A stretch of DNA of 64,000 bases from Eledone cirrhosa. Its lineage: Eukaryota. The stretch's first letter is position 1, and the number at the start of each line of letters is the position of its first letter. The DNA is taken from NCBI GenBank assembly GCA_964016885.1, contig CAXHJY010001110.1:7908-71907 (forward strand), written 5' to 3'. The notes beneath the pieces are model-generated. The model was not told the DNA's origin and searched no databases. It was given only the letters and a program-made list of their open reading frames with translations. The translations under genes and the position numbers were made by a program. This document shows positions 19,046 to 19,841 of this stretch, piece by piece.

Positions 19046-19841
19046 ATGATGTTTCGCGGCTTTTTGATCGGCTTATTCATTTTTTCCATGGCACGGAAAT
19101 GGAGTATTTCCATTTCGAATCAAAACTTTTCACTAAAATCGGGCAATTGGACTGATCAAATTCACATTCATGCCAGTTTTTACAAATCCATAATTAGAAA
19201 TGTGGCGAAATCGAATGACCAGAAGGTATAAAAATATTAATTCAAATGTATTTACTTATCATACCAACAAAAATACTTAGATATTTTGTATACCTGGGGC
19301 CCGTCAGGGCCAGGTAATGTTAATCGCCAACATTGTTATCTGTTGTCCTTTTGTGAAAGTATTGGTGGTTCATGTCGGCTCTAATGATCTGAATCCTCGT
19401 CGCACCGTTGGCACTACAAAGCTGTGCAAAGTAATACAATAATTTTTGCCCAAGTATTTTTTATTAATCATTTATTTGTAAAATAAGGACAAAGTGCCCG
19501 TTCGAGGCACAAAACCGGAAAAACAGGGGAAGAGTCTCTTTGCAAGGCTACAGAAAATAGCGGAAAAGCACTACTGTACACCCATTTTCTACAGTGGTGT
19601 CATTCCACGTCCACAAAGTGTAATTGAAAATAAAAATGACTTGGGCAAGAGAAATTCTCGTTTGGAAAAGTTTAATTACTGCATGAAAGAAATGATTCAA
19701 AAATTGAACTTGCCCAATCTTCACAACATTGAAAATTGGTCAAAATTTGACAAATCTGACTTCAAACCAGATATGATTCATTTGAACAATGTTGGAAATC
19801 TTAAATTGACACAAATTTTTGCCAATGTTTTTGCCACCTGA
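19046..19841 (+). CDS. Spliced SGNH/GDSL-type hydrolase (exons 19046-19225, 19281-19430, 19488-19841; ~227 aa), possibly degenerate
   Basis: Removing two phase-0 GT-AG introns gives SIIRNV..K|IFCIPGAR..VLVVHVGSNDL..CK|DK..FYSGVIPRP..FKPDMIHLNNVG, i.e. SGNH blocks II, III and V in order. Block I GDS is not intact. AATAAA at 19879. Confidence 0.75.

Follow-up and report, generated by a model that had tools for sequence, protein, structure and literature searches.

Many mobile elements keep an SGNH esterase, and the reason for this is a standing question on which the gene described here bears. The window that we analyzed, a stretch of 64,000 nucleotides of Eledone cirrhosa DNA (contig CAXHJY010001110.1), had been read from its letters in a first-pass annotation as holding a hidden SGNH esterase gene with tiny introns, similar to the esterase of some non-LTR retroelements and with no reverse transcriptase (RT) beside it. 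How would such a gene come to be interrupted by introns, and what carries it? In our preferred reading, to which we assign a probability of about 0.55, this is likely a spliced SGNH esterase-type gene of the retrotransposon kind and likely the cargo of a young, non-autonomous Helentron-type (HLE2) element.

Gene Structure and Predicted Introns

Removal of two short AT-rich segments turns positions 19046-19841 of the forward strand into one open frame of 227 codons plus stop, running from an ATG at 19046 to a stop at 19839-19841. Both segments have GT..AG ends and lie exactly where the first-pass annotation had drawn them: predicted intron 1 at 19226-19280 (55 bp, GC 0.18) and predicted intron 2 at 19431-19487 (57 bp, GC 0.175). 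Each is in phase 0 and holds two stops in the frame of the preceding exon, those of intron 2 being TAA. The originally drawn exon 1 (19046-19225), of which 19177-19225 alone is coding under both models of the first exon discussed below, is followed by exon 2 (19281-19430), with block II (PGA) and block III (HVGSND), and exon 3 (19488-19841), with the YSGVIP strand, block V (DMIH) and the stop, all on the forward strand. The motifs CIPGAR, VVHVGSNDL, SGVIPR and DMIHLNNVG come in the order that had been claimed for them.

When in-frame GT..AG removals of 35-120 bp were compared, the segment originally chosen was the AT-richest among 6 options for intron 1 and among 8 for intron 2, and the top six of the AT-richest 55-bp windows in 19046-19841 start at 19227-19231 or 19432. 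The CIPGA motif survives only if intron 1 has its acceptor at 19280. A 96-bp alternative for intron 2 (19431-19526) is also in frame, and it would shorten a loop that is otherwise 18 residues longer than in the zebrafish ZfL2-1 esterase. Contigs from the four of 13 runs that were compared cross both predicted introns unspliced, and no intron match was found at the joints of these contigs among the 15 of 50 joints listed, a listing that also gives 40 of 193 differences and 12 of 25 indels. Judged by its sequence features, the esterase gene is likely spliced through the two tiny predicted introns. The usual minimal introns of animals are given as about 50-90 bp (PMC13644364). A transfer from a dicyemid parasite was considered and rejected, as 55-57 bp falls in this range.

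Affinities of the Encoded Domain

That the gene encodes an SGNH-type domain, as first proposed, was borne out by Pfam, the ESM Atlas, a profile of our own and hhalign. First, exon 3 alone matched Pfam Lipase_GDSL_3 (PF14606) with an E-value of 0.005 and 17.6 bits, which is below the cut-off of 27. Second, its nearest ESM Atlas neighbors were two unnamed eukaryote clusters (0.95 and 0.93), followed by GDSL clusters. Third, we built an SGNH profile from 58 bacterial PF13472/PF14606 domains, kept out of 81 fetched loci after dropping those that were clipped or had no G-D/N-S. Against it the joined exons 2 and 3 scored 27.9 bits (E 1.2e-10 as a single comparison; the best of 5000 shuffles reached 7.8) and exon 3 alone about 21.2-21.3 bits; in a ranking of the 386 six-frame ORFs in 1-21700, exon 3 came first and exon 2 second. 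Fourth, hhalign in local mode gave an SGNH probability of about 95%. As an aside, a 926-bp contig (L006) in a Ruminococcus albus assembly codes for E. coli TesA at 100% protein identity and is probably contamination of that record.

Among 177,635 PDB sequences, exon 2 had one match at E<=10, the esterase of the zebrafish ZfL2-1 ORF1p (4c1b), which was weak (E 0.35), and exons 3 and 1 had weak unrelated rows only. The catalytic residues of ZfL2-1 are described as S143, G165, N195, D279 and H282, with H191 and S228 specific to transposon esterases (PMC3905857). In the window protein, the catalytic G (block II, PGA), N (block III, GSND) and D and H (block V, DMIH) are all present; the His of VHVG occupies the H191 position in a direct alignment to 4c1b, and the Ser of YSG, assigned by motif and position, that of S228. 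The residues G, H, N, S, D and H follow in this order with spacings of 25, 4, 55 (H to S), 59 and 3, as against 26, 4, 37, 51 and 3 in ZfL2-1. The block II, III and V motifs and the His and Ser positions are shared with ZfL2-1 and with the CR1/L2, RTEX and Penelope-like esterases as described (PMC3905857). The 4c1b match and the transposon-specific residues thus sustain the earlier suggestion of a likeness to non-LTR ORF1 esterases, from which the window esterase probably descends on this sequence evidence.

The predicted protein is basic, with a pI of 9.9 versus 10.8 in ZfL2-1. Unlike the ZfL2-1 class, it has predicted introns, no ORF2 or RT, an 18-residue longer loop after block III, a block I lacking G-D-S and, by eye rather than by predictor, no upstream coiled coil of the kind present in ZfL2-1 ORF1p. 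A non-LTR ORF1p would be intronless with ORF2 next to it; here predicted introns interrupt the frame and a convergent 119-codon ORF follows. The ORF lists hold no RT frame beside the gene, in agreement with the first-pass annotation, and the nearest LINE remains are decayed.

None of the protein searches turned up a sequence relative. A phmmer search of exon 3 against 1.84 billion representatives gave no match at E<=0.001, word-index protein searches with exons 3 and 2 returned no scored relative, and NCBIfam has no family for either. None of 4 viral candidate loci, from a search sensitive to close relatives only, and none of 166 metagenome candidates was confirmed as a relative, while phages and plasmids gave only matches with E-values of 4-10. 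Folded without an alignment, exon 3 reached a pLDDT of 50.5, and fold searches with this poor model gave nothing clear.

A Young Multi-Copy Repeat

The gene sits in a young multi-copy repeat, which the first-pass annotation had overlooked. Part of 18950-19900 is held by nine of the 13 listed runs, under six organism labels, and half or more of its words by five of the 13; none listed as holding it is an RNA run, which has no bearing on expression. Contigs over 17550-20695 were compared from four of them (X1, X3, X5 and X6). Within X1, perhaps the source sample, flank contigs with 0 differences from the window have depths of 9.6 and 8.68, contigs over the gene 582 and 584 (range 560-631 across 18520-19688), and those from 19659 up to 20355 have 1247-1262. 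This amounts to 61-67 times the unique flank over the gene and 130-145 times farther right, as ratios of contig depth, which is no copy number, in a library whose kind is unrecorded (as for X5 and X6). It is this contrast within a single run that marks the repeat as young. The depth in X5 rises by similar steps (4.1-4.7, 12.6 and 45-56). Near-identical copies occur under three organism labels, with long pieces showing 0-5 differences also in X5, X3 and X6; those in X3 extend up to 655 bp with 2 differences and those in X6 up to 229 bp with 5, these two runs bearing two further organism labels.

The locus-unique X1 contig ends at 18390, and at 18477 and 19659 other copies pass into different sequence; because copies diverge at these two points, we regard the repeat family as modular. 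One variant family, seen over 19051-19191, reaches 0.46 times the depth of the window type in X1 and 15 times in X5. These two samples share an organism label, and the subfamilies may differ between them about 30-fold in copy number.

Block I and the First Exon

The first-pass annotation described block I as split between FLIG and SIIRNV. As a description of the sequence this is correct, but FLIG may lie outside block I. Neither cause offered for the split could be upheld. The 114 bp from FLIG to the Ser have no fitting GT and AG ends in our donor and acceptor lists, which speaks against a decayed third intron; as to inactivation of the window copy, an X1 contig over 19128-19367 has a depth of 582 and 0 differences from the window. 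Because so deep a contig is identical to it, the odd block I is common to the family, and decay of the window copy alone is an unlikely cause of its form.

G-D-S is absent, and there are two Ser candidates: that of KSIIRNV, 18 residues before the block II Gly, and that of codon 19175-19177, 22 residues before it. The latter would become part of a T-D-S with a candidate upstream exon of 24 bp (AIFCTD) at 18963-18986 on the forward strand, which follows a GT-AG segment of 40 bp (18923-18962) and precedes a donor at 18987. Joined to an acceptor AG at 19176, this donor would yield a T-D-S block I with the Ser spacing of 22 found in ZfL2-1. A bacterial block I matrix gives its own members 10.4-28.6 and the T-D-S window 5.7, second among 54 donor-acceptor pairs. 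Global hhalign scored the upstream-exon model at 40.6, the model starting at 19046 at 35.5 and a trimmed version of the latter at 39.4, and among the models tested only that with the upstream exon brings D-S into register with GDS. A hand-chosen six-exon chain from an ATG at 18598, with GT..AG gaps of 188, 40, 190, 55 and 57 bp, stays open for 237 codons. We consider the odds even that the upstream exon supplies block I, which, to judge by its residues, is non-canonical under every model considered.

A first exon that starts at ATG 19046, as originally drawn, with no further intron, is a tentative option. The product would then be a catalytically dead or non-standard SGNH protein, with the FLIG stretch as its N-terminal signal or anchor; this reading concerns the product and fits any of the vehicles considered below. 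Consistent with it, no ATG lies between the initiator-like TCATT motifs at 18858 and 18865 and that at 19046, no more than 6% of shuffles leave the 38 extra codons open, hydropathy rises to a signal- or anchor-like 2.3 over residues 5-15, and the Ser of KSII precedes an Ile, like S143-I144 of ZfL2-1. However, its KS window scores -5.0 on the bacterial block I matrix, and it has no D-S register in global hhalign. Further, the variant family skips 18999-19050, so that ATG 19046 is gone, and in 19121-19157 it has three one-base gaps and seven substitutions, with none at third codon positions. This family may be a dead derivative, because it has no match of at least 80% over intron 1 and exon 2. 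That the first exon is something other than both models is quite improbable.

Ends and Anatomy of the Element

Several structures around the gene resemble the ends of Helentron-type elements. A perfect hairpin with a 10-bp stem and a 4-nt loop at 18366-18389 (minus strand) is a candidate 3' stem-loop; except for TA microsatellite and a palindrome at 16510-16575, it is the only G/C-bearing perfect hairpin with a stem of at least 9 bp in 1-21800. In metagenomes its pattern was found in eight stretches (GC 0.44-0.69), which share only the hairpin and scraps of <40 bp with the window. It abuts an 11-bp motif at 18390-18400 (minus strand in our feature list), the putative subterminal inverted repeat. 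Exact copies of this motif in 1-21800 start only at 18390 (+), 20688 (+) and 21692 (-), all at terminal structures, and copies with one mismatch at 20844 (-), 21535 (+) and, outside the element, 16849. An exact inverted pair is thus formed by 18390-18400 and 21692-21702, and with one mismatch by 20844-20854.

To the right of the gene lies a 198-bp inverted repeat. Its left arm (20672-20868) comprises a 34-bp unit in 3.9 copies, flanked on one side by the subterminal motif and on the other by its near-complement, and is joined to the upstream sequence in X5 and X6 contigs. The right arm (21521-21718) is 95.5% identical to the left and runs into a satellite of 863 copies of a 49-bp unit with 96% matches (21709-64000), which might be the central repeat of a sister element in expanded form. 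A 16-mer at 18462-18477 matches the 34-bp arm unit at 15 of 16 positions (5 of 2000 shuffles were as good) and ends at the copy junction at 18477, before which two X1 contigs have loose ends and at which one X5 contig (record 19) stops, with 88 further letters. Read on the minus strand, the order is subterminal repeat, tandem unit, cargo, subterminal repeat and stem-loop, which is the HINE/HLE2 layout. Four Rep/helicase patterns had no match in the six frames of 1-21700.

Our preferred reading would then work as follows. A Rep/helicase made elsewhere in the genome would copy the element as DNA; because copying is of DNA, introns would be kept and an RT would not be needed. Because other copies differ from 18477 on, the window copy would be a derivative that was rearranged or lost internal sequence. 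The basic product (pI 9.9) may, by analogy with ZfL2-1, bind acidic membrane lipids and, if the upstream exon completes block I, a Ser-His-Asp triad might slowly hydrolyze esters. The esterase might either serve the element or ride as a passenger. Counted against a Helentron are the lack of a clean T-run at the candidate 5' ends and the nature of the 11-bp motif, which is short and AT-rich and was chosen post hoc. There are three candidates for the 5' end, namely the left arm, the right arm and a point beyond the satellite, and the hairpin end may belong to a neighboring insertion, because most copies differ from the window at 18477.

The same structures bear on two other vehicles. One is a host gene or pseudogene pair (the esterase and the convergent BTB-like ORF) whose copies arose by passive amplification in a tandem or segmental array linked to the satellite, with the Helentron-like pieces as unrelated insertions. 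The gene block does adjoin the 42-kb satellite, its copies are nearly identical, and a ratio of variant to window type of 0.46 in X1 versus 15 in X5 is what unstable arrays would be expected to give. However, the left flank is locus-unique up to 18390 and other copies diverge at 18477 and 19659. The stepwise rise in depth toward the right and the divergent junctions fit dispersed derivatives better than duplication of a whole block, and the subterminal motif and the 16-mer link the left end to the arms. We consider a passive array unlikely.

The other is a remnant of the accessory gene of some other intron-bearing element, namely a Penelope-like element or Terminon, Ngaro, a long-TIR DNA transposon or an endogenous DNA virus. 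SGNH/GDSL genes are carried by such groups (PMC3905857, PMC6431247, PMC9210276), the depth rising rightward resembles 5' truncation, and the 198-bp inverted arms could be terminal repeats. Against this, the ORF lists hold no RT, recombinase, transposase or capsid frame, the Rfam hammerhead matches are weak and lie outside the element at 16489-16596, and viral contigs held no relative in a search reaching close relatives only. An origin of this kind appears doubtful. A Tc1/mariner MITE at 20675-21715 was also considered and rejected, as the arms match worst over their outermost 13 bases.

Other features were observed in and around these structures. The satellite (21709-64000) has a strong strand skew, and its first dozen bases also occur inverted just outside the left arm, near 20650-20661, a hint that it grew from the element. 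An old direct duplication (18602-18654 / 18952-19006; 4 of 2000 shuffles were as good) lies upstream of the esterase gene, and another (19881-19970 / 20570-20653, 76%) flanks the BTB-like ORF; such duplications inside the element are possibly repeated promoter or end signals. The GC-rich spacer between the arms (20875-21515) resembles decayed coding sequence and has no Pfam or NCBIfam family.

The Convergent Frame and Surrounding Sequence

The convergent 119-codon ORF on the minus strand (20022-20381) has a 43-bp GT-AG segment (20383-20425) just before its ATG. In the ESM Atlas it reached 0.92, with BTB on 27-70% of the members of the top clusters, which is a lead only; Pfam gave no BTB match, and a single-sequence fold had a pLDDT of 40.1. 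The ORF is possibly a BTB/BACK fragment, going by these clusters, and likely a second passenger of the element. A Ulp1-protease motif in another minus frame at about 20290-20382 was rejected, as that frame stops after about 30 codons.

Farther upstream, an 870-codon intronless frame at 11052-13664 (+) combines a C-type lectin part (Pfam Lectin_C, E 1e-7) and a PAN part (PAN_1, E 2.5e-4) with a coiled-coil-like one. A truncated near-copy lies about 4.85 kb upstream at 6194-6754 (+), in a duplicated block that starts near 4930; lectin genes that lack introns, as here, may be retrocopies. Hammerhead-like cores are present on both strands of palindromes at 16489-16596 and about 3000-3070 (Rfam HH9 with E-values of 0.04 and 0.35, short of the cut-off). 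Such hammerhead palindromes occur in Penelope-like remnants. At 17740-18200 (-) there is what we take to be the decayed end of an L1/Tx1-like element, with remains of a Cys/His knuckle, and it is a very common repeat in X1 and X5. The sequence around the gene, with what are presumably SINE and RTE fragments and with long TA microsatellites, resembles an octopod genome.

Comparison with Known Systems and Implications

Among elements of the HLE2 group, HINE, DINE-1 and Cg_HINE are described as having 11-bp subterminal inverted repeats and a 3' palindrome beside the right repeat, together with an inner near-complement, a short microsatellite and tandem arrays able to grow into satellites (PMC4067079, PMC7492417, PMC11417382), all of which have counterparts here. 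Unlike HINE as described there, the window element has intron-bearing cargo genes, its inner and subterminal repeats are separated by about 140 bp instead of 1-22 bp, and its 5' module is present twice, in inverted orientation. Terminons (PMC6431247) and Ngaro (PMC9210276) share with it the state of a mobile element with an accessory GDSL/SGNH gene. By these accounts, however, Terminons encode an RT and Ngaro an RT and a YR, and we found no such frame, hammerhead or split direct repeat here.

The closest parallel is with fish. The texim/teximY genes are described as multi-exon, CR1-related and RT-free SGNH genes linked to Helitrons, a link reported as found in fish and absent in the other animals covered by the available part of that paper (PMC4021074). 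Given texim, the combination of introns, no RT and a rolling-circle transposon is already known. Both systems show a multi-copy SGNH gene with introns, no RT and an association with a rolling-circle transposon. Whereas texim has up to 15 exons, lies beside the Helitron coding region and is expressed in testis (PMC4021074), the window gene is compact, with predicted introns of 55-57 bp, Helentron-type ends, no Rep/helicase motif found and a non-canonical block I, and its host is an invertebrate; the two were compared by description, without texim sequence. With that limit, the window element looks like an invertebrate counterpart of texim.

We found no report of an intron-bearing, RT-free, Helitron-linked SGNH gene outside fish in the literature searched, which was mostly without subscription papers and Repbase. 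A HELIANO supplementary list gives 5 HLE2 and 55,718 HLE1 for Octopus sinensis; the terms SGNH, GDSL and BTB are absent from the HELIANO text and one supplementary file, and its domain table may still bear on this point. The available text of an Octopus vulgaris repeat annotation reports eight Helitron families with recent activity, with no mention of SGNH (PMC13282606).

A wider scenario, which we regard as speculative and somewhat improbable, would have the ORF1 esterase either recruited repeatedly by rolling-circle transposons (in texim and here) or kept by them since a common ancestor. The minimal introns would have been gained after the RNA cycle, the esterase kept for reaching membranes or crossing between cells, and the central repeat would have seeded the 42-kb satellite. 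The fish study left undecided, in the part available, whether texim helps the Helitron or is a host fertility gene carried along (PMC4021074). If the window gene is dead or merely passively amplified, it would be ordinary repeat cargo. If our preferred reading is true, it would be a second case, in a distant animal and in a young high-copy family, which would speak for an advantage to the element, and would also be an instance of intron gain in a retrotransposon-derived gene. Sister elements that have the gene could then be compared with ones that lack it to test for such an advantage.
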